A stretch of DNA of 64,000 nucleotides from a virus (Duplodnaviria > Caudoviricetes): positions 19,899 to 83,898 of the IMG/VR virus record IMGVR_UViG_3300037780_000050; one strand, 5' to 3'. Below the pieces are notes generated by a model. The model had not been told where the DNA came from, searched no databases, and was given only the letters and a program-made list of their open reading frames with translations. Positions 26,146 to 58,201 of this stretch are shown in pieces; within the stretch, counting starts at the first letter, position 1; each line of letters starts with the position of its first letter. Made by a program: the position numbers and the translations under genes.

Positions 26146-27684
26146 ATGACTCAGATCAGTCCGCGCACCGATGCCGAGGTGGGCATGGTGGTGCTGGCCC
26201 GGGTGATCCAGACCAGGGACCCCGCCGCGCTGGACATGGCGCTGCGTCGGGTGTCACCCGAGCACTTCTCCGACAGCGCCCAGGCCACGATGCTGGAGCT
26301 GCTGGACCGCTACAGCACCCAGACCGGTGAGGTCATCGGTGGCGACGAGCTGCGAGATCTTGCGAGCCGGGGCAACGACGTGGGCCGCAGCGCCCGGTTG
26401 GTGCAGTGCTACGACGAGGCCGCGGCTCTCGGCGGGGGCCAGGTTCGCCACGACCAGTTCGTGTTCGGACTCGATGAGCTGCGCAGGCGGCGGGCTAGGG
26501 AACGCACTCGCCAGGCGGTGGCCACCGCGGCCGAGATCATGCGTGCCGACGGCGCCCGCATCGGACGAGACCATCTGGTCGGTGATGAGGACGCCCGGGA
26601 GTGGCTGCTGAGCCAGCTCGCTCACATCGATGCCGAGCAGAACCGCCACGACGCCCCCGAGGGTGACGTGTTGCGGGAGGGCGCCGATGTGATGGCCGAG
26701 TACGCCGATGCCAAGGGGCTGCGTGAGCAGGGCCGAGCGCCGGGAGTCCTCACGGGACTGGCTGGATTGGACAGAGTGCTGGGCAGCATCGACGCCGGAG
26801 AATTGGGTCTGGTGATCGGCTGGACGAGCGACGGCAAGACCACCTTCTGCGTGAACCTCGCGTGGCACGCCGCGGTGATGCAGCGCAAGAACGTGTTCTT
26901 CGCCACCACCGAGACGCTGCGCCCGACGGTGCGTCGTCGCCTCTACTGCCGCCACAGCGCCCAGCCTGAGTTCGGCATGGCCGAGCCGTTGGATTCTGCC
27001 GAGGTGAAGCGGGCCACGCTGTCGATCGAGCACGAGCAGGTGCTCCGCGCCGTCAGCGAGGATCTGACCGAAGGGGTTCGCGACGGCCGCTACGGGGCGC
27101 TGCACGTGGCTCAGGTCCCCAAGGGCGCGAACATCACCCAGCTCGAAGGCCAGATCCGTCGCTACCACGGCCGCACCCCCATCGACTTGCTCATCATCGA
27201 CTACTTGGGTCTGCTGGCCCCCGAGCGCAGGCGCCGTGAGGCCCGCGACGAGCTGACCGAGACCCTCAAGTCGGCCAAGAACATGGCGGCGACCTTCGGC
27301 GACGGGGAGGGCATCGCGACGATCTCGCCGTGGCAGGTGAGCCGCAACGCCCGTGCCGAGGCCGAGCGCAGCGGCCGCTACTCGCTGGCCAGTCTCTCCG
27401 ACACCGCCGAGGCCGAGAAGTCATCGGACGTGATCTTGGGGCTGTTCCGACGCTCTCCTGAGGGCGGGCACTACCCCCGCCACGACGATGTGACGTTGCA
27501 GGTACTCAAGAACCGTGACGGCACCAGAGCTGATGACATCTCAGCGAGGGTGGACTACGCCAGTTGCACCTTCACCGATGCAGGCTCTCGCCGGGTCGCC
27601 GAGCAGATCACTGCTGCGGAAATGAGCTGGTCTAGTAGTGACGACGCCGAGCTGGCGGCGTTGGATTCGCTGCTCGATCTCTGA
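26146..27684 (+). CDS. dnaB: DnaB-like replicative helicase
   Basis: LTGLAGLDRVLG, GWTSDGKTT (Walker A), LLIIDYLGLL, PWQV, AEKSSDVI, VLKNRDG. Confidence 0.9.
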   Translation: MTQISPRTDAEVGMVVLARVIQTRDPAALDMALRRVSPEHFSDSAQATMLELLDRYSTQTGEVIGGDELRDLASRGNDVGRSARLVQCYDEAAALGGGQVRHDQFVFGLDELRRRRARERTRQAVATAAEIMRADGARIGRDHLVGDEDAREWLLSQLAHIDAEQNRHDAPEGDVLREGADVMAEYADAKGLREQGRAPGVLTGLAGLDRVLGSIDAGELGLVIGWTSDGKTTFCVNLAWHAAVMQRKNVFFATTETLRPTVRRRLYCRHSAQPEFGMAEPLDSAEVKRATLSIEHEQVLRAVSEDLTEGVRDGRYGALHVAQVPKGANITQLEGQIRRYHGRTPIDLLIIDYLGLLAPERRRREARDELTETLKSAKNMAATFGDGEGIATISPWQVSRNARAEAERSGRYSLASLSDTAEAEKSSDVILGLFRRSPEGGHYPRHDDVTLQVLKNRDGTRADDISARVDYASCTFTDAGSRRVAEQITAAEMSWSSSDDAELAALDSLLDL

Positions 27685-33364: not shown

Positions 33365-33967
33365 GTGACAACCAAGACCGAAGCTGACTGGGTTTCCCGC
33401 CCAGCGACTCTGGACTCTATGTATCGGCTTTACCGGCCACGTATCGAGGCCATTTGCGCCAACATGGGAATCATCAACGTGGAGGACGCCGCCAGTGAGA
33501 TCCTGTGTCGCTTCATCGAGCGTGGGTTCATGGAGAAGTTCGACCCCGACTACGTGACCGTGGCCGACGGGCGCTACTACCCGGCGCGCTTCTCCACTTT
33601 CATCTGTGCGTTCGCCGAGCGCTACGCCCGAGGTATCCGTGACCGGGAGCGTCGCTCCAGCAAACGGGAGCATCTCAAGGACGAGCTGATCGATACCGAA
33701 TCCTTCGAGACTCCCGACCAGTGCTGGAGCGACGAGCTGATCGCCACCGTGAAGGACATGCAGGCACGAGTCGCCGAGCTGCCCAAGGTCGGGCGCCGCG
33801 ACTTGGAGCCCTTCTTTGCTGCGCTGCTGGCGCAGGTGCTGGAGGGGCGCAGTGAGATCGACCGCAACATCGTGGCCCGGGAGCTGTCCATCAGCGTGTC
33901 GACAGTCGGGAACTGGATCTACATGGTGCGCGAGGAGATCGAGCCGTGGGCCGACCGGCTGCGGTGA
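33365..33967 (+). CDS. ECF-like sigma factor or sigma-4 HTH regulator
   Basis: VEDAASEI and RFSTFI (region 2-like); IVARELSISVSTVGNWI (region 4 HTH). Confidence 0.6.
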   Translation: MTTKTEADWVSRPATLDSMYRLYRPRIEAICANMGIINVEDAASEILCRFIERGFMEKFDPDYVTVADGRYYPARFSTFICAFAERYARGIRDRERRSSKREHLKDELIDTESFETPDQCWSDELIATVKDMQARVAELPKVGRRDLEPFFAALLAQVLEGRSEIDRNIVARELSISVSTVGNWIYMVREEIEPWADRLR

Positions 33968-34749
33968 TCGGCGCCGAGGCGCAGTGGGACGCGGTGCTCG
34001 CCGCCGATCCCCATGCGCTGGCGCTGCTGTCCAATCCCGACGCCAGGATCGGTGCCCGGGGCTTCGCTCAGGCGTGGGCGCGACATCTTCGGGTGCCCCC
34101 AGCATTCGTGTGTAGCTACGAGGGTGTGACCATGGACGACGCCCGCGCCGCGGTGCTCGACATCATCCGCAGACCGCCCCGTTTGGTCGTGCTGGAGTTC
34201 GGCGAGGACAGCGCTCGCCAGCAGAACGCCGTGCTCAAGGCCATCGAGGACCCTGGGCGCGCCCGTGTGGTGGTGATCGGTTCGAGGGCGACGCTGCTGC
34301 CCACCGTGTTGAGCCGATGCATGGTGGTGACGTTGGGGTTGCTGGGACCGCAAGATCTCGAGCGAGCGCTGCGCGCCCAGGGCATGGACCCTGATCGAGC
34401 GAAGGACGTGGCCATCAAGGTGGGAGTGGGAAGCGTGGAGGACGCGCATCGGGTGCTGGGAGGGTCTCCAGCGGTGTCTGCGGTCGCCAACGTGGCCCGA
34501 GCGCTGGCCCAGAAGGACCGTCGGTTGCTGGAGTCCAGCATCGATCACTGGGACGAGGACAAGCACCGGCTGTTCATGCGCTGGCTCGTGGCCAGCGCCG
34601 CAGGTCGTCCGCTGCGAGAGGTGGGGTCGTGGCAGATTCCCAGAGCCCAGGCACTGCCGATGTGGCGGGAGCTGTGCGACTACAGCGGTGCTCGCCCAGA
34701 GCTGGCCATGGCTGTCGCAGTGGCGTCGATCTCAGAGAATCTGGTATGA
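33964..34749 (+). CDS. holB: DNA polymerase III delta-prime-like clamp loader subunit
   Basis: QQNAVLKAIEDP and LLPTVLSRC (SRC motif); degenerate Walker A. Confidence 0.7.
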   Translation: MIGAEAQWDAVLAADPHALALLSNPDARIGARGFAQAWARHLRVPPAFVCSYEGVTMDDARAAVLDIIRRPPRLVVLEFGEDSARQQNAVLKAIEDPGRARVVVIGSRATLLPTVLSRCMVVTLGLLGPQDLERALRAQGMDPDRAKDVAIKVGVGSVEDAHRVLGGSPAVSAVANVARALAQKDRRLLESSIDHWDEDKHRLFMRWLVASAAGRPLREVGSWQIPRAQALPMWRELCDYSGARPELAMAVAVASISENLV

Positions 34750-34967: not shown

Positions 34968-35131
34968 TGGATGAAGACGAGTTCGCCACCCAGTTGTTCT
35001 GTCCGGTGTGCTGCTCCACGGTGGATGTGGACAGGCCCGGCCGACACGAGCTGGTCTGTGTGAGTTGCGGCACGCACTTCGAGGTCGATGTCGACCCCGA
35101 GATCGTGGCCGAACACAGTCTGGTGGGGTGA
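34967..35131 (+). CDS. small Zn-ribbon protein
   Basis: CPVC and CVSC; TGATG coupling. Confidence 0.55.
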   Translation: MDEDEFATQLFCPVCCSTVDVDRPGRHELVCVSCGTHFEVDVDPEIVAEHSLVG

Positions 35132-35132
35132 G

Positions 35133-36035
35133 GTGGCGACGTTCATCCAGCACATCCGCCGTCGCTATGAGCGGGCGCCGCGGCGGTTGACGTGGGTGTG
35201 CGGTTCCGATGAGTGGTTGCGTTTGGAGGTCGTGAAGGATCTGGTTGAGCGTTACGCCCAGAACCGGGCGTGGTACGACATCAGTTCGGCGAATGGGATC
35301 AGAGACTTCTGGGCGAGCGCCTTCCAGTACGGGATCGATGACGAGCCCCGCGTCATCGTTGGTACCCGTGCTCACAAGGTGAGTGATTGGGACAAGCTGG
35401 AGCTGTGGGCGTCAGAGATGCGCACCATGCCCAAGCTGTATCTGATCTTCGACAGCGACGATCACAAGATCGAGTCCGACAAGGACCACGTGGCCATGAT
35501 CCGCGACAAGGGTGACGTGATCCGTTGCGCTCCACCCAAGGAGGCCGACACCTTCGAGTGGCTCTCGACAGAGTTCGACACCATGAGCGCGACGGTGATC
35601 AACGCTGTGATCGATCGCACCATGAACGATCCACGCCGCAGCTATCAGCTCTGCGACAAGTTGGCCATGTTCGGCAACGCCCGTCCCGAGCACGTGGCGT
35701 TGCTGGGGGAGGAGTTCGTCGCCGGAGACTTCGTGGACTACGTGGTGCTGGGGGACAAGAAGCGGGCGATGGCTCTGGTCGAGACCATCGAGCCCCGCCA
35801 GGTGCTGGGGTTGTTCGTAGCGAGGTTGCGCCAGATGCAGGAGATGCACCGAGCGTTCCGCACGAACACCCACGCCAACGTCCCGGTGTTCGTGGAGCGC
35901 CGCTTCGAGAAGGTGGCAGGTCGGTACAACCAGGCCAAGGTGGCTCACGCCCGCAGGCTGTTGGCCGCTGCGGACGAGGCCACGAAACGAGGCCCCGCCG
36001 TGGGTGCCTTGGAGATGTTGGTGAGGAGTTGGTGA
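35133..36035 (+). CDS. holA: DNA polymerase III delta-like clamp loader subunit
   Basis: WVCGSDEWLRLEVV resembles the YLxxGxExxL start of delta; ~300 aa; FVDYVVLGDKKRAM lid/collar pattern. Confidence 0.55.
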   Translation: MATFIQHIRRRYERAPRRLTWVCGSDEWLRLEVVKDLVERYAQNRAWYDISSANGIRDFWASAFQYGIDDEPRVIVGTRAHKVSDWDKLELWASEMRTMPKLYLIFDSDDHKIESDKDHVAMIRDKGDVIRCAPPKEADTFEWLSTEFDTMSATVINAVIDRTMNDPRRSYQLCDKLAMFGNARPEHVALLGEEFVAGDFVDYVVLGDKKRAMALVETIEPRQVLGLFVARLRQMQEMHRAFRTNTHANVPVFVERRFEKVAGRYNQAKVAHARRLLAAADEATKRGPAVGALEMLVRSW

Positions 36036-36415: not shown

Positions 36416-36645
36416 CCAAGCCCACCCCACGCCACTGGAGTGCGGTGGCGCGCTGTCCCCGCTGCGGTCAGCTCGTGCGCAAGGAGACCGCCACCAAGAT
36501 CGGCAAGCGGTTCTACGGACCGGAGTGCGCGCAGCTCGTGCTCGCCAACATCACCAACCTGCGGGTGGTCGACGGTGAGGTCACCGAGGCTGAGTCCAAG
36601 ACGCATCGCTACATGCGACGCCGGGTGAAGGAGCGAGAGACATGA
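36412..36645 (+). CDS. small Zn-finger protein
   Basis: CPRC and GPEC. Confidence 0.55.
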   Translation: MTKPTPRHWSAVARCPRCGQLVRKETATKIGKRFYGPECAQLVLANITNLRVVDGEVTEAESKTHRYMRRRVKERET

Positions 36646-39020
36646 AGCTGACCCAGCGAGTGACCGACATCGATCAGCTCCGGGAGCACATGGACAAGAT
36701 CTGTTCCGAGGGCATCGTGTTCGGGTTCGACATCGAGACCGGCTACGACGGCGATGATCGGGACAAGGCCGCTACCACTCCCGAGTTGATGAAGGTCGTG
36801 GGGATCTCCTACGCCATGAACACCGACGAGGGCTTCTACGTGCCTCTGGCGCACGACTTGGAGCGCAACGAGGACTTGGCCACCGTGGCCGAGGTCATGA
36901 AGCCCGCACTGCAATCTGGTCTGGGTGTGGCTCACAACGCCAAGTTCGAGATCCGGTGCTTGGCCCAACCCCAGCCCCGAGGGTTCGGCTACCACTGCCG
37001 CGTGTTCAGCGACACCCAGATCGAGGCGTACGTGTTGCAGGAGTGGCAGAGCTTCGCGTTGAAGTCGCTGGTGTACGACGTGTTCGCCTACGAGCAGGCC
37101 ACCTACGCCAGCCTGTTCCCGGGGGCCAAGCCCGCCGAGCTTCGCAGGAGCAGGTTCAACCATCTTCCTGTCTCCCCGGCCGTGATTTCCTATGCGGTGG
37201 ACGACAGCATCTGGTGCCTCGCACTACACCTTCGCCACCACCCTCTGGTCGCCGACACCGCGGTGTACAAGCTGGAGATGCAGGTACTCGATGTGGTCGT
37301 GGCGATGGAGGAGGTCGGTCTCTACTACGACTGGGACTACTTGCGCGCCGGGGCCGAGGGGTGTTTGGAGTTCATCGACCAGCTCGAAATCGAACTGGTG
37401 GACGAGTTGAGCGAGATGGTCTTCGGTGTGGGCATGGAGGGTGGTGTGGATGGCGTCCCCAGCCGTATTGAGGTCAACCTGGCCAGCCCCGCCCAACTCT
37501 CCGACGTGCTGTACAACAAGCTGGGCCTGCCCGTGACGATGCGGTCCAAGAAGACCGACAAGCCGAGCACCAGTGCCGACGCGCTGACCCCGTTGGCCAA
37601 GGACTACCCAGCGGTGCAGAAGATTCTGTGGTGGAAGGAGTTGAAGAAGCTCCACGGCACGTACCTCAACAAGTACGAGCGGGCGTACTCCGGCGCAGCA
37701 GACGGTCGCACCCATCCCAACACCATGCAGGCGGTGGTGGTGAGTGGCCGCTTCGCGGTGAGTGATCCTCCCTACCAGCAGACCCCGAAGAAGTACCGCT
37801 ACGAGTTGGACTCAGGCGCGCATTGGGAGTTCGAGTTCCGCCCATCGATCCGCCCCCAGGAGGGCAACTACTTCCTGTACTTCGACTACAGCCAGGTCGA
37901 GCTACGGGTGGTGGCCGGGCTGGCCAAGGAGCAGGCGTTGATCGATGCGTTCGCCAGCGGCACCGACGTGCACCGGGTGACCGCGAGCCTGATGCTCAAT
38001 GTCCCCTTCGATGAGGTCACCGGGGATCAGCGCGACATCGGCAAGACCATGAACTTCGCTCTGGTCTACGGCATGAGCACCAAGATGCTGGCTCAGCGGC
38101 TGGCGGTCACCCAGGAGCGTGCCGAGGAGCTGTACCAGGCGTACTTCGACACCTACGGGTCGATCAAGGTGTGGCGCCAGCGGGTGATCGAGGAGGCCAG
38201 CGCCAAGGGCTACACCGTGAGCTGGCTGGGGCGCAAGCACAAGATCTGGGAGTTCGAGTCCAACGACCGGTGGGTGTTCGAGAAGGGTGAGCGCTTGGCA
38301 GGCAATGCCCCGGTGCAGGGCGGTGCTGCCGACTACATGAAGGTGGCCATGGTCCGTCAGCACAAGAAGCTGGCAGAAGCTGGTCTGCTGGCAGACGTGC
38401 GGCTGGTCGCCAACGTGCACGACTCCCTCACGTGGGAGGTCACCGACGCCATCGACCCCTTCGACATGATGCGGCTGCTCAATCCTGCGGTCAGCTTCCC
38501 GCTGCCGGGGTTCCCACCGATCACCGCGGACTGGGCCGTCGGGTTGGATTGGGGCAACCTCCACGAGATCAGTCTGGTGGAGGCCGAGGAGCACGTGGCC
38601 GAGCGGTGGTCGGTGTACGACATCATCAACGACATCCCCCAAACACTCTCTCCAGAGCCTCTCCCTGCTCCTGAGAGCCCCGCTGTGGTCTCCGAGCCCC
38701 TGCCATTCCAGCCCGACCCCGCCGCCCAGTACGACGAGCCCAGCGAGGGCTCTGAGTCCTTGGGAACAAAGCGCATGGTGGTGACGCTCCAGGCGATGCC
38801 GACCAAGGCCCAGTGGTCGTCGTTCACCGAGTGGCTGGCCACCAACGCAGGCGAGTGCGAGGTGCACGTGGTCACCCCGAAAGGCAGTGTCGATTTGCCC
38901 CAACGTGTGAGCGAGCGGGCCAACACCGCGTCGGTGATCCACTTCGGCAACACGGGTCGTGTGGAGTGGGAGGTCTTCGAGGACACGAAAGATCTGTTGG
39001 TGTCGGGGCTGGGGCTGTAG
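36642..39020 (+). CDS. polA: family A DNA polymerase with 3'-5' exonuclease and extra C-terminal domain
   Basis: GFDIETG (ExoI), AHNAKFE, FDYSQVELR (motif A), GKTMNFALVYG (B), VHDSL (C). Confidence 0.92.
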   Translation: MKLTQRVTDIDQLREHMDKICSEGIVFGFDIETGYDGDDRDKAATTPELMKVVGISYAMNTDEGFYVPLAHDLERNEDLATVAEVMKPALQSGLGVAHNAKFEIRCLAQPQPRGFGYHCRVFSDTQIEAYVLQEWQSFALKSLVYDVFAYEQATYASLFPGAKPAELRRSRFNHLPVSPAVISYAVDDSIWCLALHLRHHPLVADTAVYKLEMQVLDVVVAMEEVGLYYDWDYLRAGAEGCLEFIDQLEIELVDELSEMVFGVGMEGGVDGVPSRIEVNLASPAQLSDVLYNKLGLPVTMRSKKTDKPSTSADALTPLAKDYPAVQKILWWKELKKLHGTYLNKYERAYSGAADGRTHPNTMQAVVVSGRFAVSDPPYQQTPKKYRYELDSGAHWEFEFRPSIRPQEGNYFLYFDYSQVELRVVAGLAKEQALIDAFASGTDVHRVTASLMLNVPFDEVTGDQRDIGKTMNFALVYGMSTKMLAQRLAVTQERAEELYQAYFDTYGSIKVWRQRVIEEASAKGYTVSWLGRKHKIWEFESNDRWVFEKGERLAGNAPVQGGAADYMKVAMVRQHKKLAEAGLLADVRLVANVHDSLTWEVTDAIDPFDMMRLLNPAVSFPLPGFPPITADWAVGLDWGNLHEISLVEAEEHVAERWSVYDIINDIPQTLSPEPLPAPESPAVVSEPLPFQPDPAAQYDEPSEGSESLGTKRMVVTLQAMPTKAQWSSFTEWLATNAGECEVHVVTPKGSVDLPQRVSERANTASVIHFGNTGRVEWEVFEDTKDLLVSGLGL

Positions 39021-39027
39021 CAGAGTC

Positions 39028-39339
39028 ATGAAGTTCAGACAGGCGATCACAGAGGAGAGGGCCAACGGGGTCTGGTTGAAGTACCACGTCGAGTTGGAGG
39101 AGCCCGACATCGAGTCGAGCGCCGCCGAGATGGGTCTGCCCTACGCAGAGCTGTCGACGTTGGAGCGGTTCAACTTCGCCCGGTTGCTGTGCGCCACGCT
39201 GCTCTACAGCGCCATGGTGGCCGATCATCCGTTGGCCGAGCCCGAGCTGATCGAGGCGCGCAGCCGGTTCACCGAGTACCGGGACCATCTCCGCACCAAG
39301 CACCCGCTGGAGACCGAGGACGTGTGGGGTGACACATGA
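39028..39339 (+). CDS. hypothetical protein
   Basis: 103 aa, directly after the polymerase. Confidence 0.55.
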   Translation: MKFRQAITEERANGVWLKYHVELEEPDIESSAAEMGLPYAELSTLERFNFARLLCATLLYSAMVADHPLAEPELIEARSRFTEYRDHLRTKHPLETEDVWGDT

Positions 39340-40964: not shown

Positions 40965-41025
40965 TAGAATCGACAAGCTCCCCGCAACCAGCCGGTTGGG
41001 GACCACAGAGAAAGCGACCAAGCCC

Positions 41026-42027
41026 ATGCCATTGGCGAAGTTCACCCGCGAGAACACCCAGTCAGGACCGGAGATCCCCCGGCTCAAGCTGGAGAAGGAC
41101 GAGAAGGCCCGGGTGGTCATTCTCGATGAGGGTCCCCAGTACCGGTGGTATCACCGGCTGGAGAAGATCGCTCTGCTGGGCCAGCGCCCGAAGATGGTGA
41201 CGCGAGAGCGCCGCAACGGTGAGACCTACGAGGTCTACGACACCGACTTCGTGGGCACTCCGGCATGTACCGGTGACCCCGAGGTGCTGGAGCAGCGCGG
41301 CGTCGACCCCGACAACTGCGTGATCTGCGCAGCGAGCCGCAAGTACCCCGACGCGATCGAGGAACCCAAGCGCCGCTTCGCCATGAACGTGTTCAAGTAC
41401 CAGACCAAGCCGGGCAGCTCCGAGTTGCAGGTTCCCTTCGGTGGGACACTGCTGGTGTGGTCGTTCACCGAGAAGCGGTTCAGCGTGCTGGTCGACATCG
41501 CCGAGGAGTTCGGCGATCTCCGAACCACCGACTTGGTGCTGGGTCCGTGCTCCAACGCCCAGTTCCAGAACTTCGAGATCCACGGCAGCCCGAAGGCCGC
41601 GTGGATGTCCAACGACGAGACCAAGGCGTACACCGCCAGCGTGTACAAGGAGAACAAGTTCTCCGACGCCGAGCTGATGGACTTGTGCGCCAAGGTCCGC
41701 GAGGAGCGCTACGTCAAGGAAGATCTGGAGATGATCATCGAGCGCTGGGAGCACGTGGCCCGCTGGGAGGCGGGCGACGCTCAGGTCAGCGCCTCGGCCG
41801 CAGCTCCGGCCGAGAAGATCGATGTCGCCGATGCGCTCAGCGATCTGTTCAACTCCAGCGACTCGCCGACCGAGGCAGATACCGAGGTCAAGACCGAGCC
41901 GATCTCTCGCCCCACGACGTCGGTCACCGACGACTTGGACGCTCTGCTGGAGGCTCCCACCGAGGCACCGGCCGAGCCCAAGGAGGAGATCAGCGGCATT
42001 ACCGACTTGGATGATCTGCTCAAGTGA
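41026..42027 (+). CDS. gp32-like single-stranded DNA-binding protein
   Basis: RLKLEKDEKARVV, Cys cluster CxxxxCVIC, RFAMNV, acidic tail ending DLDDLLK. Confidence 0.7.
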   Translation: MPLAKFTRENTQSGPEIPRLKLEKDEKARVVILDEGPQYRWYHRLEKIALLGQRPKMVTRERRNGETYEVYDTDFVGTPACTGDPEVLEQRGVDPDNCVICAASRKYPDAIEEPKRRFAMNVFKYQTKPGSSELQVPFGGTLLVWSFTEKRFSVLVDIAEEFGDLRTTDLVLGPCSNAQFQNFEIHGSPKAAWMSNDETKAYTASVYKENKFSDAELMDLCAKVREERYVKEDLEMIIERWEHVARWEAGDAQVSASAAAPAEKIDVADALSDLFNSSDSPTEADTEVKTEPISRPTTSVTDDLDALLEAPTEAPAEPKEEISGITDLDDLLK

Positions 42028-43787: not shown

Positions 43788-45008
43788 ATGACCGACATCA
43801 CGATCGATCAGATGCGAGACCGGTTGCTCACCATCGAGCAGCTCCACACCGAGTTGGCAGCCACCGAGCCGCTCAGCGAGATGGAGTTCGAGACGGGCGA
43901 GCAGATCCGCTTCGAGCTGGGCGAGGGTGCGCTCACCCAGGCCCAGAACATCGCCGACACCGAGCCCGTCAACGCGGTGGCCCACATCAACGGCACCGTG
44001 TTCCCGCTGTCCAAGGAGGCGCTGCTGGAGGCCACCAGCAAGTGCGGCATCCCCAAGGGATACGCACAGCGGACCCCCGAGGGACTCATCGAGACCCACC
44101 TCAACTACTGGTTTCAGGAGGGGCTCCGGGTCGGCAGCAACGGCAAGCCCAAGCAGCACAAGGCGCTCGCCGCGGGCACCGATCAGCTCATCGTGGGCTT
44201 CACCGGAGGACAGATCCGCCCGTTCAGCAACCTCCAGTTGCTCGACATCGCAGTGGATCGAGCTGCCAACTACTACGGCGCCCGCGTGGATGATCTGCTG
44301 GTCGACTACAAGCGCCAGCACAGCCTGCGTCTCACCGAGTTCCGGGTGATCGTCCCCGACTACACCCGCAAGATCGTCTCCGGCCGCGACACCGCCGCCC
44401 GAGAGGATTCGTGGAGTGCAGGTCTACAGGTCCGCAACTCCCTCACGGGCGAGGACTCCACCAGCTTGGACGGCTACCTGTTCGCATGGTGGTGCACCAA
44501 CGGCTGCACGAACACCTACGCCACGTCGGGACGCTGGAGCCGCCGTGGCGGTGGCGGCAACGACACCAACGAGGTGTACGACTGGGCTGCCCAGTCGGTC
44601 GACCAGATCTTCGCCGAGCTGGAGACGAGCTTCGATGAGGTGCAGTCGCTGACCCAGGTCCCGATCCGGGGCGATGTGGTCGGTGCGCTGGGCAACATCT
44701 ACGAGCGCTACGGCATCCCGAGCGTGCTGCGGGATCGCATCACCGAGGCCATGGTGGAGTCGGACGATCTCACCATGTACGGGATCATGAACGCCATCAC
44801 CAGCGTGGCCAACGACGGTGTGTCCGCACGCCAGGCCACCACGCTGATGGAGGCCGCTGGCGAGCTGCCTCGGGTGTACGGCAACGCCCGGGTCGCGTTC
44901 GAGGCCGTGGAGACCGGCCACTTGGATCTCCAGGGTGACGTGGACATCACGCTGCCCGACGGGCAGACCGTTCGCACTCGGGTGACGAAGATCCCCGCCA
45001 GCGACTGA
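43788..45008 (+). CDS. DUF932-like protein
   Basis: GLQVRNSLTG and WWCTNG motif. Confidence 0.65.
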   Translation: MTDITIDQMRDRLLTIEQLHTELAATEPLSEMEFETGEQIRFELGEGALTQAQNIADTEPVNAVAHINGTVFPLSKEALLEATSKCGIPKGYAQRTPEGLIETHLNYWFQEGLRVGSNGKPKQHKALAAGTDQLIVGFTGGQIRPFSNLQLLDIAVDRAANYYGARVDDLLVDYKRQHSLRLTEFRVIVPDYTRKIVSGRDTAAREDSWSAGLQVRNSLTGEDSTSLDGYLFAWWCTNGCTNTYATSGRWSRRGGGGNDTNEVYDWAAQSVDQIFAELETSFDEVQSLTQVPIRGDVVGALGNIYERYGIPSVLRDRITEAMVESDDLTMYGIMNAITSVANDGVSARQATTLMEAAGELPRVYGNARVAFEAVETGHLDLQGDVDITLPDGQTVRTRVTKIPASD

Positions 45009-50245: not shown

Positions 50246-50478
50246 GCGACGACATCACCCAGCGCATCCAGCTCGCCAAGGAGCGGCTGGAGACCGCGCA
50301 GCGCAGCGTGATCGAGCACAACACCCAGCTCAGGTTGGCCACCGAGGAGCTGGAGCGGGTCACCGCCGAGATGCAGGAGAAGTTCGGCGTGGCCACGCTG
50401 GACGAGGCCCGAGAAAAGCTGGCGCAGATCGACGCCAAGATCATCGAGAAGCTCGATGAGTTGACCAAGGAGTTGTGA
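50242..50478 (+). CDS. 78-aa coiled-coil protein, possible Rad50 coiled-coil fragment
   Basis: Pure heptad repeat; ATGA-coupled. Confidence 0.6.
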   Translation: MSDDITQRIQLAKERLETAQRSVIEHNTQLRLATEELERVTAEMQEKFGVATLDEAREKLAQIDAKIIEKLDELTKEL

Positions 50479-51596
50479 TGGAGTTCCACGCCAAGCGGTA
50501 CGTGCTGTGGGCGATGCTCGACAAGGCATCCAAGGTGGTGCCGAGCCGTGACACCATGCCGGTGCTCAAGAACTTCTACGTGGAGGCGACCCCCGACGAG
50601 GTGCGGGTCGCGGCCACCGACTTGGAGCTGAGTCTGATCGTGGACGCCCAGTTGGTGCACGTGGATCAGCCCGGCAGCGCCATCATCCCGAGCCGCAAGC
50701 TGCTGGAGATCGTCGCGGCTGCCGAGGACGAGGAGGCGTACATCAGGGTGGCCGATGGCCGCTGTCACATCGACATCGGGCGCGCGTCGTGGACGCTGAC
50801 GATCAACACCCAGCCCGACGCCTACCCACCGCTTCCCGACGTGAGCGCCGAGTTCGCTGCCGAGGTCAACAGGGCCGAGCTGCTGGGAGCGTTCCAGATG
50901 GTCGAGCGAGCCGCAGGTAGGGCCACGGCGCGACCCAACTTGATGGTGCTCGACATCCACGACGGCAAGGTCACCGGGACCGATGGGGTGCGCTGTCAGC
51001 AGGTGAGGATGGAGTCATGGCCCGCCAACGTGGACATGCAGATCCCGATCGGCGCGGTGGACGAGCTGATCCGGCTGCTGCGCAGCACCGAGGCCGAGAC
51101 AATCGAGGTGGCCGAGACCGAAGACCATCTGTTGTTCCGGGTCGGCCAGGACTTGTTCGTGGCCAACAGCGTGGCCATGGAGTTCCCGCCCGTGGACCAG
51201 CAGTTGGTGGTCCCCGCGCTGGAGAACGACCAGCGGCTGACGTGTGACCGCGAGGAGTTGACCGAGGCGCTGCGCCGGGTTCGTATCACCGCCGACCCCG
51301 ACACCAGCGCGGTGGTGATGGACTTGACCGAGGACACGCTGACGTTGCGGTGCCGGGACAAGATGGCCAACGAGAGCGTGGAGTCCATCGATTGCGGGTG
51401 GAGCTACGAGGACCGGTCCGTGGTCGTCAACCATGTGTTCTTGATGGACATGTTGAAGATGGCCGACGCGCGCACGTGCGAGTTCTACTTGGGCAAGGAC
51501 AAGACCAACAGCCGCAGCCCGTTGTTGCTGCGTGACGAGTCCAAGGGCATGGTCGGCATCGTCAGCCAGATGCGAGCCGATTGGGTCACCCAGTGA
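50478..51596 (+). CDS. dnaN: DNA polymerase III beta sliding clamp
   Basis: TMPVLKNF, AATDLE, PGSAIIPSRKL, GTDGVR and FPPV; ~372 aa. Confidence 0.9.
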   Translation: MEFHAKRYVLWAMLDKASKVVPSRDTMPVLKNFYVEATPDEVRVAATDLELSLIVDAQLVHVDQPGSAIIPSRKLLEIVAAAEDEEAYIRVADGRCHIDIGRASWTLTINTQPDAYPPLPDVSAEFAAEVNRAELLGAFQMVERAAGRATARPNLMVLDIHDGKVTGTDGVRCQQVRMESWPANVDMQIPIGAVDELIRLLRSTEAETIEVAETEDHLLFRVGQDLFVANSVAMEFPPVDQQLVVPALENDQRLTCDREELTEALRRVRITADPDTSAVVMDLTEDTLTLRCRDKMANESVESIDCGWSYEDRSVVVNHVFLMDMLKMADARTCEFYLGKDKTNSRSPLLLRDESKGMVGIVSQMRADWVTQ

Positions 51597-52234: not shown

Positions 52235-52823
52235 CAAGGTCTGCTCGCGCTGCGGCGAGGAGCGCCCGCTCACCCAGTTCGGGCAGAGTCACTACACCAA
52301 GCCGAGGAAGCGGACCTACCACCACCGGGTGTGTGTGGTCTGCAAAGACGAGATCTCCGAGCGTAAGGCCACGAAGGAGGAGCTTCGCACGCTGCGTGCG
52401 TTTGGCATCGTCCCCGACCGGGAGCGGGTGGATGGGCCATCGAGTACCGAGCGTCAGCCCGGGGAGAGCTTCACCAAGGAGTGTTCGGAGTGCCGCGAGG
52501 TCAAGGCCGTGCAGGAGTTCGCGTGGCGCAACAAGGCCGAGAGATCCCGCCGTCCCAGGTGTCGTCAGTGCGAGCAGCAGGCCCGCAGGAGGCGTCGGGA
52601 GCGTCTTGGTGATGATGAGTACCGCCGCCAGAATCGAGAGGCTCAGAGGCGTCACAGGTCAGAGAAGTGGCGTGCGAAGGACCATGAGGCTGCCAGGGTG
52701 CAGCGTCGTGCCCATGCTCGCGCATCAGCGGAGTTGAGAGAGCGCCACCGTGAGGAGTTCGACCGGCTGTACGCGCAGGCCAAGGAACTAGAATCAGCGT
52801 TGGCAGATGAGGAGATCGAGTGA
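52215..52823 (+). CDS. double Zn-finger basic protein
   Basis: CSRC with CVVC and CSEC with CRQC; Arg-rich tail; no HNH core seen. Confidence 0.55.
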   Translation: MSSGSGSKVCSRCGEERPLTQFGQSHYTKPRKRTYHHRVCVVCKDEISERKATKEELRTLRAFGIVPDRERVDGPSSTERQPGESFTKECSECREVKAVQEFAWRNKAERSRRPRCRQCEQQARRRRRERLGDDEYRRQNREAQRRHRSEKWRAKDHEAARVQRRAHARASAELRERHREEFDRLYAQAKELESALADEEIE

Positions 52824-55771
52824 AGCACCGCACCCCGCGCCAGATCCAGAAGTTCTTGGATGAGAATCTCTACCGGTTCGATCTCCCGAGCCAGTATTAC
52901 GGCGACGAGCCCAACGCCTACGGCAAGGAGTGGGCCGACGGTCAGGCCCGATGGTTGATCGCTGCGTCGTGGCCATACGAGCAGGCCGCGGGCAATCAGT
53001 CCATCCCCGCGGTCTACAAGCAGATCAACGATGCCGAGCGAGGGCTCGCCGACCGGTGGTATCTGCCCAACACCCCGAGAGACATGGGGTTCTTCGAGAA
53101 GTCGGACATCCCCATCTTCGGCATCGAGTCCAAGCGCCAGGCCAGCGACTTCGACATCGTGGCCACATCGATCAGCTACCCCGTGCTGATCATCTCGTTC
53201 GTCAAGCAGTTGCTGATGAGCGGTATCCCTGCCGACCGCAAGGTCCGGGCCGAGAGCCCCGAGGCGTGGCCGATGGTCATCATCGGCGGGCAGGCGTATG
53301 GCGCTCCGGGTCCGCTGGAGCCGATCGCGGATGCGATCTGGTGTGGTGAGGTGGAGGAGGAGCCGGGCAATCCCGGCATCCAGACCTTCACCGAGCGGGT
53401 GGCCCAGTTCAAGGCCGTTGGTGTGTGGGACACCGAGCGCAGTCGGTGCTACTACGAGTTGGCCCGAGAGTTCCCCTTCGTCGTGTTCCCCGAGCACACC
53501 GACGTGCACTACGGGTACGAGGACCGGAGTCATGTGGGGTTGGACGAGCCCAGCTTGCAGGTCCAGAGCTACACCATCAACCGATCTGGTCTGAGGGCGC
53601 CGTTCGTCAAGCGGTTCGTCAAGGACATGGACTCCATCGCCCCGCTCGACAACCCACCGCTGCTCTACGCAGATCCAGGGATGGGTGCAGGAGACTTGGA
53701 GGTGGGTCGAGGGTGTCCCGCGTGGTGCTCGTTCTGCGCACTCACGTACCGGCAGAAGCCCTACCGCCAGCGCAGCGTGGGTTACATGACCGACTTCGCG
53801 CAGCGGGTCAAGAACAACCAGGGCGCCACGAGGCTGGTGCCGTTCATGCCCGACTTCCCCATGCACACTCAGCGCCGCGGGCTGATCGCATCGCTGATGG
53901 AGAACGTGAGTGATGAGGTTGATGGCGGGGCCATGCGGGTGGACGACTTCATTGCCGACAACAACTACATCTTGTTGCAGGTCCAGGGCGGTATGGATGC
54001 TCTGACATTGGGCTTGGAGGGCAACAGTCAGCGGATGCGGGATTTCGTGGGCAAGGGTTGCTCCGATGCCGACATCGAGGAGGCGGTGGTTCGAGGCATC
54101 AGCGCAGGCATCACCAAGTTCAAGTTCTTCATGATCTCGAATATGCCGGGCGAGGATGAGGGCGACGTGTTCCGCATCCTGGCGCTGGCCAAGAAGCTCA
54201 GCGACATTCGTGAGCGCATGGGCAAGCCCAAGGTCCAGTTCCAGTTCTCGTGGACTCCGATGTTGATCGAGGCCAACACTCCGTTCCAGTGGTTCGCTCC
54301 CGCCACCAACACCCGGGCGCTGACCGACGTGTGGGAGGAGTTCAGAGATCTCAATGTGCAGTTCAAGCTGGGGGGCAAGAGCGAGTCCAACAAGGCCACG
54401 TTCTTCCAGCTTTGTCAGCGTGTGGGGAGGCTAGGGGGTGAGGCCATCCTGGCGGTGTGCGAGGCCATTGCAGCCAACCCAGGAGGTGCTTGCTGGGGAG
54501 GGGTGCCTCGCAAGCGCATCAAGGGCTACGAGATTCCCGAGCGTCCGGGTGAGCCGGTCAACACCGAGCAGGCGTTGGAGTACGAGCTGCGCAAGCGAGG
54601 GTTCCGCAACGGGTTCGGTGACTGCTTCGATGAGCGCTTCAAGGATGATCTGTTCGGATGGGAGCACATCGATCAGGGCATCCACCCCGAGCTGTTGTGG
54701 CGCACGTACGTGCAGATGCGGGAGTTCTTGGAGCAGACCGACAGCCACACCTACGATCAGCAGTTCACCGACGAGGGCTACCGCGGCAACGAGTGGATCG
54801 AGCGCTGCGACACCAAGTGTTACGGCAAGACGTGCGGGACGTGTGATGCCGACGACTTGAAGATCCGGCGCAACTACATCATCGCTGCCCAGAGCGAGGA
54901 CAAGAGGGATCTTCACGAGATCGTGAGCTTGGACGAGCGGTCCAAGGCCGTGAAGGTCCGTGCCCGGCTGCACAAGAGCGAGGATCGCAGGTTCATCACC
55001 AACGACCACTGGCGGTTCCATGTTCGCCGAGCCGCATACCTGGCGCTGCAAGATCTTGAAGTCACCGACTTCACGATCACCAAGCGGTCGATCCGCTTTG
55101 CCAGCGATGGGTTGGAGTACCGGGACTGGACGTGCGGTGTGGACTACGTGGAGTTCGCGTTCACCAGGGCTCTGGGCCGCAAGCGCATCGCTGTGATCAT
55201 GGAGGCCATGAATCGTCACATGCGGGGCATTCAGCTCGACACTGAGGCGTGGAGCGTGTATCCGCCCACGAGTGCCAGTCTGCGCAGTGATGTGGATCTG
55301 AGCTTGTGGAGTGTGCCGCTGCGTGACGAGCCGGGCGTGGTTCTCAGGGCTATCGAGGCGTGGCATTCCAGCGACTACGTGAAGATGATCATGCTCAAGG
55401 AGCAGACGTTCTTCGAGAGCGGTCACAGCGTGGTCAATGCCAAGGACTACTGCGAGGACGTGTGGTTGGCCCGAGATGGAACTGATCTGGTCGTCAAGAT
55501 GATGATCCGAGGCAAGGCCAGCCCCTACGCCGTGCTCGCTGCGTTGTTGGGCAAGAGTTCGTGGATCGAGGCCGCGTCGCTGCCCGCGCGGCGGTTGGAG
55601 TCGTTCTTGGAGTGGGACGAGGACCAGACCGACTTCTTCCGCCCCAGCAGCGTGGTGAGCGGGTCTTCCATCCCCGTGAATCCTCTGGATCAGCCGTTCC
55701 ACCCCGAGTACACCCCGAAGGAGCTGGACGAGGCCCAGGGGTATCTGGTGTCATCGCTGGCGTTCCGGTAG
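52820..55771 (+). CDS. large radical SAM protein (TIGR03960-like) fused to a TIGR03936/DUF2344-like domain
   Basis: PSQYYGDEPN, FGIESKRQASDFDIV, IIGG, EVGRGCPAWCSFC (CxxxCxxC), RVDD, EGNSQRMR; C-terminal KVRARLHK and RFI. Confidence 0.85.
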   Translation: MKHRTPRQIQKFLDENLYRFDLPSQYYGDEPNAYGKEWADGQARWLIAASWPYEQAAGNQSIPAVYKQINDAERGLADRWYLPNTPRDMGFFEKSDIPIFGIESKRQASDFDIVATSISYPVLIISFVKQLLMSGIPADRKVRAESPEAWPMVIIGGQAYGAPGPLEPIADAIWCGEVEEEPGNPGIQTFTERVAQFKAVGVWDTERSRCYYELAREFPFVVFPEHTDVHYGYEDRSHVGLDEPSLQVQSYTINRSGLRAPFVKRFVKDMDSIAPLDNPPLLYADPGMGAGDLEVGRGCPAWCSFCALTYRQKPYRQRSVGYMTDFAQRVKNNQGATRLVPFMPDFPMHTQRRGLIASLMENVSDEVDGGAMRVDDFIADNNYILLQVQGGMDALTLGLEGNSQRMRDFVGKGCSDADIEEAVVRGISAGITKFKFFMISNMPGEDEGDVFRILALAKKLSDIRERMGKPKVQFQFSWTPMLIEANTPFQWFAPATNTRALTDVWEEFRDLNVQFKLGGKSESNKATFFQLCQRVGRLGGEAILAVCEAIAANPGGACWGGVPRKRIKGYEIPERPGEPVNTEQALEYELRKRGFRNGFGDCFDERFKDDLFGWEHIDQGIHPELLWRTYVQMREFLEQTDSHTYDQQFTDEGYRGNEWIERCDTKCYGKTCGTCDADDLKIRRNYIIAAQSEDKRDLHEIVSLDERSKAVKVRARLHKSEDRRFITNDHWRFHVRRAAYLALQDLEVTDFTITKRSIRFASDGLEYRDWTCGVDYVEFAFTRALGRKRIAVIMEAMNRHMRGIQLDTEAWSVYPPTSASLRSDVDLSLWSVPLRDEPGVVLRAIEAWHSSDYVKMIMLKEQTFFESGHSVVNAKDYCEDVWLARDGTDLVVKMMIRGKASPYAVLAALLGKSSWIEAASLPARRLESFLEWDEDQTDFFRPSSVVSGSSIPVNPLDQPFHPEYTPKELDEAQGYLVSSLAFR

Positions 55772-55787
55772 AGAGCATGATGGTGAG

Positions 55788-56006
55788 ATGCTCGATCCCA
55801 AGAGGCGTTCTCCGAATCACCCGGAGCTTGTCCAAGACGACGATGGGAACTGGTGGGAGGTCATCTCAGATGATGGGGGTGGTCTCACTACGTTGGAGGC
55901 AATCGCGGCCTACTTGGTAGGCGTGGCTGTTGTCGTTGGTTCGTCGTTGTACGTGTGGGCCATGGTCCGAGGTTTACGTGGTCTGGTGAGGATGGTGTTG
56001 AATTGA
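55788..56006 (+). CDS. small membrane protein
   Basis: C-terminal TM helix. Confidence 0.5.
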   Translation: MLDPKRRSPNHPELVQDDDGNWWEVISDDGGGLTTLEAIAAYLVGVAVVVGSSLYVWAMVRGLRGLVRMVLN

Positions 56007-56815
56007 TCAGGGCAGAGGTAGTGGCAGACAGCATCACTTCGGATGGGTCGAGGCTGACCACTGTGGTGGGGACGTGCCACCGGTTCGTGCTGGCCGAGCT
56101 GAACACTCATCGGGTGTTCAGTCGCAACAGCGCCAGCAGTCGAGCCATCCCAACCCACAAGCGCATCGCGCAGGTGCTGGACGATCCGGCGATCCCCATC
56201 GAGTTCGGCTCCAATCAGGCCGGAATGCAGGCCGGTGCTCCCATCGAGGACGAGGACAAGGCCCGCAACGAGTGGCTCCGGGCGCGTGATGCCGCGGTCG
56301 AGCACGCTTCGGCGTTGTTGGAGATGGGCGTCCACAAGCAGGTCGTCAACCGGGTGCTGGAGCCATTCATGTGGCACACCGTGGTGATCAGCAGCACCTA
56401 CTGGGAGAACTTCTTCGACCAGCGATGCAGCCCGCTGGCTCAGCCTGAGATCCGTGCGTTCGCCGAGGTTGTGCGGGGCGCCATCGAAGGCAGTGAGCCG
56501 GATTGGCTCACCCCGGGCGAGTGGCATCTTCCATTCACGCGAGATTCCACCTATGCGGACACGTATGAGCAGATCAGGGTGTCGGTGGCGCGTTGCGCTC
56601 GCACGAGCTACGAGACGCACGATGGCGAGATCGACGTAGCGAAAGATCTGGAGCTGTACCAGAAGCTGGTGAATGCCCGACCTATGCACGCCAGCCCATT
56701 GGAGCATGTGGCGTGCGTCTTGGTTGAGCCGCTGGGTACGAGCAATTTCTACCCCAGGTGGGAGCAGTGGCGGTCGACGGTGGAGAAGAACCGAGGGTTG
56801 GAGACGCGTCGATGA
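56003..56815 (+). CDS. thyX: FAD-dependent thymidylate synthase
   Basis: VADSI, RLTT, HRFVLAELNTHRVFSRNSASSRAIP and HASPLEH; start uncertain (TTG 56003). Confidence 0.85.
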   Translation: MIRAEVVADSITSDGSRLTTVVGTCHRFVLAELNTHRVFSRNSASSRAIPTHKRIAQVLDDPAIPIEFGSNQAGMQAGAPIEDEDKARNEWLRARDAAVEHASALLEMGVHKQVVNRVLEPFMWHTVVISSTYWENFFDQRCSPLAQPEIRAFAEVVRGAIEGSEPDWLTPGEWHLPFTRDSTYADTYEQIRVSVARCARTSYETHDGEIDVAKDLELYQKLVNARPMHASPLEHVACVLVEPLGTSNFYPRWEQWRSTVEKNRGLETRR

Positions 56816-57049: not shown

Positions 57050-58201
57050 ATGAGCTTGGCCATCAAGTACCGTCCCCGAAGTTTCCAAGCTACGAGCGGT
57101 CAGAAGCCCGTGAGGGTGGTGCTGCGCCAGATGGTGCGCACCATGCAGGTGCCCAACGCTCTGTTGTTCACCGGGAGCAGGGGCACGGGCAAGACGACCA
57201 CGGCGCGGGTGCTGGCCGCAGCGCTCAACGCTTCGCTCGATGGCGATGTGGATCCAGAGTCTGCTGTGGCGCAATCGATCTTGGACGGGCGCAGCACCGA
57301 TGTGATCGAGCTGGACGCTGCCAGCAACGGTGGCGTGGACAGTGTGCGGGAGATCAGGGAGCTGGTCCAGTACGAGCCCCAGGGGTGGCGTGTGGTGATT
57401 CTGGACGAGGCCCACTCCATGACCCGGGAGGCGTTCAACGCACTGCTCAAGACGCTGGAGGAGCCGCCACCGAGGACCGTGTTCGTGTTGGTGACCACCG
57501 AGCCGCAGCGCATCATCGAGACCGTTCGCAGCAGGTGCATGGAGTTCGTGTTCACGAGGTTGAGCGTGGCCGACATCGTGGCCCGGCTGCGGGAGGTGGC
57601 TGACGCCGAGGAGATGCAGATCAGCGACGAGCTGCTGCACCACTTGGCTGGTCTGGTGCAGGGTGCCATGCGTGATGCACTGATGCTGCTCGATCAGTGT
57701 CGGGTGGTCGGCATCGAGACCGTGGAGGCGTGGCAGGAGTTCAGCGGTGAGGCCGATGTGGCTCCGAAGATCTTGTTGGCGTGCGTCCGAGGGGATATGG
57801 CGGGTGCGTTCAGCGCGGTGAGCGAGGCACTGCAATCGACGGGAGACGTAACTGGTCTGGTGGATGCGATCATCGCAACGCTGCGCGACGTGACGCTGCT
57901 CCAGGCAGACATCGCAATCACAGCCACAGGGCAGGGGTTCATCGACCGTCAGGCGCTGGCCACCATGATCGAGCCCATGAGGCTGCCGATGGCGTTCAGG
58001 GTGCTGTGGGGGCTTCGTAGTGGTCTCCGACTAGGGTCGGGGCGTCGTGAGGATGTCGAGCTGTGTGCCGCGGTGCTGAGCGATGTGCTGTGCCTACAGA
58101 AGCCCCAACCAACGCCACCGCCACACTCCAATGTGTTGCCGTGCTCGACATCTGCCGATGATGAAGAAGTGACTCTGGACGACATGAGGAGCATGACATG
58201 A
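57050..58201 (+). CDS. dnaX: DNA polymerase III gamma/tau-like clamp loader ATPase (domains I-III)
   Basis: LAIKYRPRSF, GSRGTGKTTTAR, ELDAASNGGVD, ILDEAHSM, AFNALLKTLEEPP and TVRSRC. Confidence 0.93.
   Translation: MSLAIKYRPRSFQATSGQKPVRVVLRQMVRTMQVPNALLFTGSRGTGKTTTARVLAAALNASLDGDVDPESAVAQSILDGRSTDVIELDAASNGGVDSVREIRELVQYEPQGWRVVILDEAHSMTREAFNALLKTLEEPPPRTVFVLVTTEPQRIIETVRSRCMEFVFTRLSVADIVARLREVADAEEMQISDELLHHLAGLVQGAMRDALMLLDQCRVVGIETVEAWQEFSGEADVAPKILLACVRGDMAGAFSAVSEALQSTGDVTGLVDAIIATLRDVTLLQADIAITATGQGFIDRQALATMIEPMRLPMAFRVLWGLRSGLRLGSGRREDVELCAAVLSDVLCLQKPQPTPPPHSNVLPCSTSADDEEVTLDDMRSMT

Follow-up and report, generated by a model that had tools for sequence, protein, structure and literature searches.

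Introduction

The phages Ma-LMM01 and RSL1 encode a family A DNA polymerase (PolA) together with homologues of polIII beta and polIII gamma, and the composition of their replicase was left open (Kazlauskas and Venclovas, 2011, PMC3201878). In Escherichia coli, tau's final 23 residues, which are unstructured, bind the tail of the Pol III alpha subunit (DnaE), and the tau-binding domain of alpha comprises residues 1079–1160 (PMC4703070). Actinobacterial PolA2 (APEX), a cellular, low-fidelity enzyme, carries an internal QxxLF motif for clamp binding, located in a dead exonuclease domain; this PolA2 motif is described in a 2026 survey of bacterial polymerases, which reports no PolA with a DnaE-type domain (PMC12926913). 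Here we analyse a family A DNA polymerase gene of a phage from the IMG/VR collection (virus record IMGVR_UViG_3300037780_000050, 83.9 kb with direct terminal repeats). The stretch analysed, referred to as the window, comprises 64,000 nucleotides (bases 19899–83898 of the record) with a guanine plus cytosine (GC) content of ~63%, and positions are given in its numbering. The polymerase continues past the usual end of a PolA into a conserved tail that resembles, in profile and in fold, the tau-binding domain at the C-terminus of DnaE.

An original prediction, drawn from the DNA sequence, had proposed that this tail is a DnaE-type C-terminal domain. Profile and structure comparisons both support the proposal. 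Judged from sequence and structural models, the tail is probably homologous to the DnaE C-terminal domain (about 85%), the rest going to convergence on a common small fold. Hybrid replisomes of PolA, clamp and clamp loader are already known; the grafted alpha tail domain together with a matching short DnaX appears to be undescribed, and a literature search, with subscription journals outside its coverage, found no published description of a PolA/DnaE-tail fusion.

Architecture and conservation of the phage polymerase

The polymerase gene (P0001; 36642..39020, + strand, stop codon included) is intact. It is a stop-free open reading frame (ORF) of 792 amino acids, recognised by Pfam, NCBIfam pola and PRK05755, and encodes a replicative family A enzyme with 3′–5′ exonuclease and polymerase domains. 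The exonuclease domain (residues 51–193; 36792..37220, + strand) matches Pfam PF01612 (DNA_pol_A_exo1) above cut-off with an E-value of 4.3e-6, and the Exo I motif FDIET is readable in the sequence. The polymerase domain, taken through the end of the PolA core (residues 277–643; 37470..38570, + strand), is delimited by Pfam, by its motifs and by the end of the pola model: Pfam DNA_pol_A (PF00476) matches residues 277–602 (E 1.1e-87), with motif A (DYSQVELR) at 415, motif B (KTMNFALVYG) at 468 and motif C (HDS) at 593. By its polymerase motifs and exonuclease domain the protein is a Pol I-like family A enzyme with proofreading.

PolA enzymes were expected to end soon after motif C, and the NCBIfam pola match (E 7e-86) indeed stops at residue 639, which is model position 888 of 890. 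The normal Pol I-type end therefore lies near residue 643 (…GLDWGNLHEI), and ~150 residues are extra. Beyond the core, two short helices (644–665) are followed by a Pro-rich flexible linker (residues 666–708; 38637..38765, + strand), a folded DnaE-type domain resembling the tau-binding domain of Pol III alpha (residues 709–778; 38766..38975, + strand; delimited by AlphaFold, Foldseek, VIA-align and hhalign) and a flexible C-terminal peptide (residues 779–792, ...KDLLVSGLGL; 38976..39017, + strand). The string KRMVVTLQAMPTKAQW... begins at residue 710. A full-length AlphaFold2 model (81 sequences) has a mean predicted local distance difference test score (pLDDT) of 90.1; the score is below 50 at linker residues 672–708, reaches 92–94 at residues 711–760 and falls below 50 again at 781–792, the terminal peptide as a whole being at ~40–50.

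GC at third codon positions stays at 0.75–0.93 in the polymerase frame to ~38980 and then moves to the frame of the next gene; the tail is therefore coding, in frame and translated as part of the polymerase. Together with the structural model and the conservation described below, this confirms the predicted extra domain after motif C and a Pro-rich linker. Its predicted length of ~90 residues needs refinement: a tail of 84 residues (709–792) is present, of which ~70 (709–778) are folded and the last 14 form the flexible peptide. The next ORF (38959–39339), when read from its first listed start codon, overlaps the polymerase end by ~60 nucleotides; the switch in codon-position GC near 38980–39040 suggests that its true start is probably downstream.

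The tail domain was found in 105 of the best 120 PolA homologues from a collection of 5.8 billion proteins. The nearest cultured relative is gp69 of Microbacterium phage Magritte (888 residues, 32% identical overall), and its alignment reaches the tail. Since it is conserved both in these homologues and in Magritte gp69, the tail is not chance sequence. The consensus of the tail family is roughly R-x-V-I-V-x-L-x-x-M-P-(6)-R-F-x-x-L-L-x-x-x-P-G-x-N-x-x-x-L-x-T-P-E-G…T-x-L-x-P…S-x-x-L-G-G-A-x-V…V-D-x-x-x-h-h-x-G-L-x-L at the carboxy end (h, hydrophobic), where the peptide itself reads VDxxx-hydrophobic-hydrophobic-x-G-L-x-L/F. An exhaustive phmmer search of 1.84 billion representative proteins with the tail returned two true relatives, both PolAs with a C-terminal tail, one of them containing a LAGLIDADG intein. 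Four repetitive proteins among the matches were rejected as repeat or composition artefacts, being of Ig- or fn3-type by Pfam scan.

Some individual relatives deserve mention. The closest PolA (L004:10001–13357, P0002; 81% identical) has a LAGLIDADG-type intein of ~330 residues just before motif B (…RDIGK / …HN TMNFALVYG), and several other family members of 1030–1190 residues also look intein-bearing. The PolA of one contig (L116; IMG/VR record G025) has a divergent stretch of ~85 residues at its end, …ILLIEMSEFPEAEPW…PVWVQIGDQ…IRTVELELAS, which the hidden Markov model (HMM) of the tail family missed. The end of this divergent tail resembles the E. coli alpha terminus, and the DnaX of the same genome retains a KLTLAEL peptide of the kind discussed below.

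Relationship of the tail to the DnaE C-terminal domain

For comparison, 80 DnaE loci were taken from GTDB genomes, ~45 of them actinobacterial and the rest from many phyla. Their C-termini show the pattern PV…L…T…V…LK.VL..HPG…V.L…L..DLK.LLG, and the actinobacterial pattern that the original prediction had given fits these real sequences. When the tail family was aligned by hhalign with 74 DnaE C-terminal domains, the match spanned 72 columns, which is the whole domain (probability 73.5%, P 3e-5, score 30.1); against a full-length DnaE alignment, the sole match was to columns 1103–1180 of 1187. Two independently built alignments, of 22 tails (A7) and 57 C-terminal domains (A9), matched over 76 columns with a probability of 68.2% and P 4.7e-5. 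The true match scores 29–30, as compared with 11–16 for reversed decoys and 8–12 for twelve other 140-column blocks of DnaE. The tail HMM matches at least 25 full-length DnaE sequences, each time inside the C-terminal domain. Identity of the tail to the Pol III alpha domain is ~17%, and the profile relationship reaches significance when taken as a one-to-one test, its probability staying under the usual 90%.

Comparison of folds points to the same domain. An AlphaFold2 model of residues 709–792 (93-row alignment, pLDDT 81.9) has the topology beta-alpha-beta-beta-(alpha)-beta, with the final 15 residues disordered. The top five Foldseek matches in the Protein Data Bank (PDB) are all chains of Pol III alpha from Thermus aquaticus (Taq), with probabilities of 0.96–1.00, query TM-scores of 0.53–0.62 and a root-mean-square deviation (rmsd) of 2.7; the match after these has a probability of 0.15. 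VIA-align places the tail model on Taq alpha 1128–1205 with a Z-score of 9.3 (rmsd 2.6 over 71 residues) and on E. coli alpha 1081–1160 with Z-scores of 6.0–6.7, the next fold being KaiB at 5.2. In an exhaustive alignment to 48,161 PDB representatives, which is independent of Foldseek, Taq alpha ranks first and E. coli alpha second (Z 9.3 and 6.7), and everything under rank 3 is at 3.8 or less. Both a profile similarity and a structural similarity to the DnaE C-terminal domain, as the original prediction anticipated, are thus present.

The alternative is convergence: the tail and DnaE would have arrived separately at a common small alpha/beta fold, and the tail would be an unrelated accessory domain, such as an intrinsic processivity or DNA-binding extension comparable to the one at the C-terminus of phage T5 polymerase. 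A number of observations weigh on that side and against homology. Small beta-alpha-beta-beta-alpha-beta folds recur among unrelated proteins, and KaiB and ferredoxin-like folds also align with the tail (Z 3–5). The best Foldseek E-value is 9e-3, above 0.001, and the HH probability of 68–74% lies under the usual confidence level of 90–95%. No match to DnaE appears at the sequence level: the phmmer search of the 1.84 billion representatives gave no DnaE, its true relatives being PolAs only, and neither did phmmer and two profile searches of PDB sequences with the tail. Comparing the tail with the E. coli alpha C-terminus by BLASTP yielded noise only, a word-indexed protein search with the tail region returned the polymerase itself alone, two single-sequence scans of IMG/VR with the tail gave no match, and an ESM Atlas feature search gave no usable match, its structural neighbours being generic alpha/beta proteins with TM-scores below 0.5. 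A reciprocal search with an HMM of the DnaE C-terminal domain placed the PolA ORF first of 1172 six-frame phage fragments, with a weak score (E 1.1). Pfam, run on the tail alone, found no match at E<=10, including PF20914 (DNA_pol_IIIA_C). The silence of this last family means little, because PF20914 is narrow and does not define the wider actinobacterial/Thermus domain; it was positive in just one of 14 control genomes, that of E. coli.

Against convergence, one and the same domain of one protein family is picked by two independent methods, from among 48,161 chains in one case and 1187 DnaE columns in the other. The match spans the full domain, and the setting is shared: in both cases the domain lies at the very C-terminal end of a replicative polymerase whose system includes DnaX and a beta clamp. 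Because the profile and fold comparisons are independent and both select the same domain of the same protein, homology is favoured, and we give convergence a slim chance. A recent capture of the tail from an actinobacterial DnaE was also considered and found no support, as profiles of actinobacterial and non-actinobacterial C-terminal domains score alike.

Clamp and clamp-loader genes

The phage encodes its own Pol III-type accessory proteins, all on the + strand of the window. These are a beta sliding clamp (DnaN homologue, 373 residues; 50475..51596; three beta-clamp domains in Pfam, NCBIfam dnan E 2.7e-37), a short DnaX-like clamp-loader ATPase (P0127, 383 residues; 57050..58201; Pfam, and NCBIfam dnaX_nterm above cut-off at 273.9 bits), a delta′-like subunit (267 residues; 33946..34749; Pfam DNA_pol3_delta2 and NCBIfam holB models) and a delta-like (HolA) subunit (315 residues; 35088..36035). 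The last was identified by NCBIfam TIGR01128 holA (E 8.2e-15), whose match spans 3–313 of 316 model positions and lies below the curated cut-off. DnaB, RecA and an SSB-like protein are also encoded, and a search of the phage genome for DnaE found none. Tau domains IV and V were not seen in the phage DnaX, and PF12170 (tau domain V) was found nowhere in the phage genome.

The gene order is common to the phage, two metagenomic relatives and Magritte, which likewise has homologues of DnaN and DnaX. Both DnaN and DnaX are encoded by all 17 near-complete genomes in a set of 32 related IMG/VR contigs. Two features of the neighbourhood stand apart. The DnaX of the window (57050–58201) is without the zinc module of four Cys (PCGxCxSC), which is retained at positions 61–74 by more than 90% of the DnaX family; and within the replication region a 983-residue radical SAM fusion (Radical_SAM_N2 + Radical_SAM; 52820–55771) adjoins a ThyX-like thymidylate synthase (55955–56815).

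The C-terminal peptide of DnaX and its co-occurrence with the tail

In the phage DnaX, domain III is followed by a Pro/Ala-rich linker and a conserved terminal peptide, EEVTLDDMRSMT (58163..58198, + strand). About 110 members of the phage DnaX family (360–397 residues; P0129–P0247, L090:1292–2377) end with the consensus [KR][LM][ST]L[ADS][EDQ]M, and the terminal peptide of Magritte DnaX is RKLSLAEMQRG. From its sequence, the peptide has the look of a short linear docking motif carried by a clamp-loader subunit of gamma length.

Sixteen genomes combine a tailed PolA with a scored DnaX, counting G025 owing to its divergent tail; the peptide is clear in 14 of them and variant in two. Five genomes have tail-less PolAs, and here DnaX ends right after domain III in three, is unclear in one and keeps LTASEM in one. 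In the tree, the tail-less PolAs fall into two separate, well-supported clades nested among the tailed enzymes, and this holds when the tail columns are omitted. A stand-alone tail domain was not detected in the five tail-less relatives, in a search without a positive control in those records.

Further terminal peptides occur in the phage and in cellular proteins. A conserved 406-residue protein (43788–45008, just downstream of RecA) carries a DnaX-like peptide in its N-terminus, MTDITIDQMRDRL; L004 keeps this peptide, and Magritte gp76 has it in the form MSISIHDLEKK. The sole match of the 406-residue protein is phrog_1362 (function unknown). The SSB-like protein (40996–42027) ends ...ITDLDDLLK, and Magritte gp72 ends ...NFDDLLSEMS, while DnaB (26146–27684) ends ...DDAELAALDSLLDL. 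Both of these C-terminal tails, of the SSB-like protein and of DnaB, are acidic-hydrophobic and may likewise be peptides for docking in the replisome. In full-length tau of Streptomyces, Nocardioides and Nanopelagicaceae (L148–L150) the extreme C-terminus …LSGxxLLxxELGAxxIxE… is shared, and is a candidate DnaE-binding peptide.

A possible docking module and its candidate partners

We think it fairly likely that the DnaE-type domain on the family A polymerase is a docking module to the phage's own Pol III-type accessory machinery. The transplanted domain, held on a flexible linker, would tether an unrelated family A polymerase to the phage clamp loader and clamp. The partner we favour is the conserved peptide at the C-terminus of the phage DnaX, and the polymerase's own C-terminal peptide would be a candidate clamp contact. 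As the phage DnaX is without tau domains IV and V, the ligand of the tail must differ from that in the cellular system or be minimal; a minimal tau, consisting of gamma plus a peptide, is an attractive partner for the grafted domain because the C-terminus of E. coli tau binds the alpha tail (PMC4703070). Docking of this kind is plausible and consistent with the gene content and with the co-loss of tail and peptide, each partner being a candidate. More tentatively, and with somewhat less than even odds, a whole lineage of large actinobacterial phages may have assembled a hybrid replisome, with a family C tau-binding domain grafted onto PolA and tau in parallel cut to a gamma-length DnaX bearing only a ~10-residue polymerase-binding peptide.

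Certain observations tell against so specific a pairing. The co-loss of tail and DnaX peptide amounts to two independent events only (sign test p 0.5), which is suggestive and far from significant, and G014 retains the peptide-like LTASEM without a PolA tail. The similar peptide on the unrelated 406-residue protein suggests that such peptides may address a different hub. The clamp and DnaX also occur in phages whose PolA is tail-less. The tail is consequently not essential for a PolA–clamp system and would be an accessory coupling device; the idea that it is a requirement for clamp use was rejected on the same grounds. Given the similar peptides on the 406-residue protein, the tails of the SSB-like protein and DnaB, and the ends of actinobacterial tau, the true ligand could be another phage protein or host tau.

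Two other assignments of the partner accept the tail as truly DnaE-type. In one, the main partner is the phage DnaN, the domain and its ...G-L-x-L peptide together forming a clamp-docking or processivity module, and the DnaX peptide serves another purpose. Polymerases commonly have a clamp-binding peptide at their extreme C-terminus, that of the phage PolA is conserved and predicted to be flexible, and every near-complete relative encodes DnaN. The peptide, however, is without the leading Gln of the beta-clamp consensus (QL[SD]LF or QLxLxL), although phage clamps may read a different motif; the coexistence of tail-less PolAs with DnaN indicates that clamp use needs no tail; and it is through the OB domain, missing from the phage polymerase, that the contact is made in E. 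coli. We regard the clamp as main partner as unlikely, if well short of negligible. In the other assignment, the domain binds full-length tau of the host, and the phage polymerase is recruited to the host replisome instead of to the short phage DnaX. This would accord with the lack of tau domains IV and V in that DnaX, and the conserved amphipathic end of actinobacterial tau (LSGxxLLxxELGA...) could be a natural ligand of such a domain. On the other hand, the phage has a complete loader and clamp of its own, the tail profile is no nearer to actinobacterial DnaE than to DnaE of other phyla, and the phage DnaX ends in a conserved peptide of its own that tends to be lost where the tail is lost; recruitment to host tau has only a small chance of being correct.

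The catalytic cores of the A and C polymerase families are unrelated, and homology of the tail would make this a clear instance of a domain passing between replicases that are not homologous. If docking to the loader is correct, the alpha–tau tether would be a portable module of two parts, domain and peptide, that can link a Pol III-type clamp loader with a polymerase of unrelated type. A DnaE docking domain on PolA would offer a concrete, testable answer to how phages with PolA and a bacterial-type clamp and loader assemble their replicase, a question open in earlier work (PMC3201878). With a ~70-residue domain and a ~10-residue candidate peptide, the system is also a minimal model of a polymerase–clamp loader tether, and its biochemistry is feasible because the architecture occurs in the cultured phage Magritte. 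The annotation of hundreds of metagenomic phage polymerases would improve.

Comparison with known systems

The family A polymerase of phage T5 also has a functional C-terminal extension beyond the normal end, linked to clamp-independent processivity; this extension is not known to be related to DnaE. In Ma-LMM01, RSL1 and the phage described here alike, a single phage encodes PolA and homologues of polIII beta and polIII gamma, and has no DnaE. The account of Ma-LMM01 and RSL1 reported no coupling element (PMC3201878), whereas the present phage has a full loader set (DnaX, delta and delta′) and, on its polymerase, a domain of the Pol III alpha docking type. PolA2 resembles the phage polymerase as a family A enzyme adapted to the bacterial sliding clamp; in contrast to the short motif of PolA2, the phage enzyme carries a whole folded, probably DnaE-derived domain, and it has the conserved Exo I motif and an exonuclease-domain match.

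The closest counterpart is the tau-binding domain of Pol III alpha itself (E. coli 1079–1160, PDB 5FKU and 5FKV; Taq ~1128–1205, PDB 2HPI, 3E0D and 4IQJ), which has the same fold as the phage tail. Like that domain, the tail occupies the far C-terminal end of a replicative polymerase, has conserved Gly turns (PG, LG) and belongs to a system that includes DnaX, delta, delta′ and a beta clamp. The two differ in their attachment: the domain of alpha follows an OB domain on a family C polymerase, whereas that of the phage follows a disordered linker on a family A enzyme.

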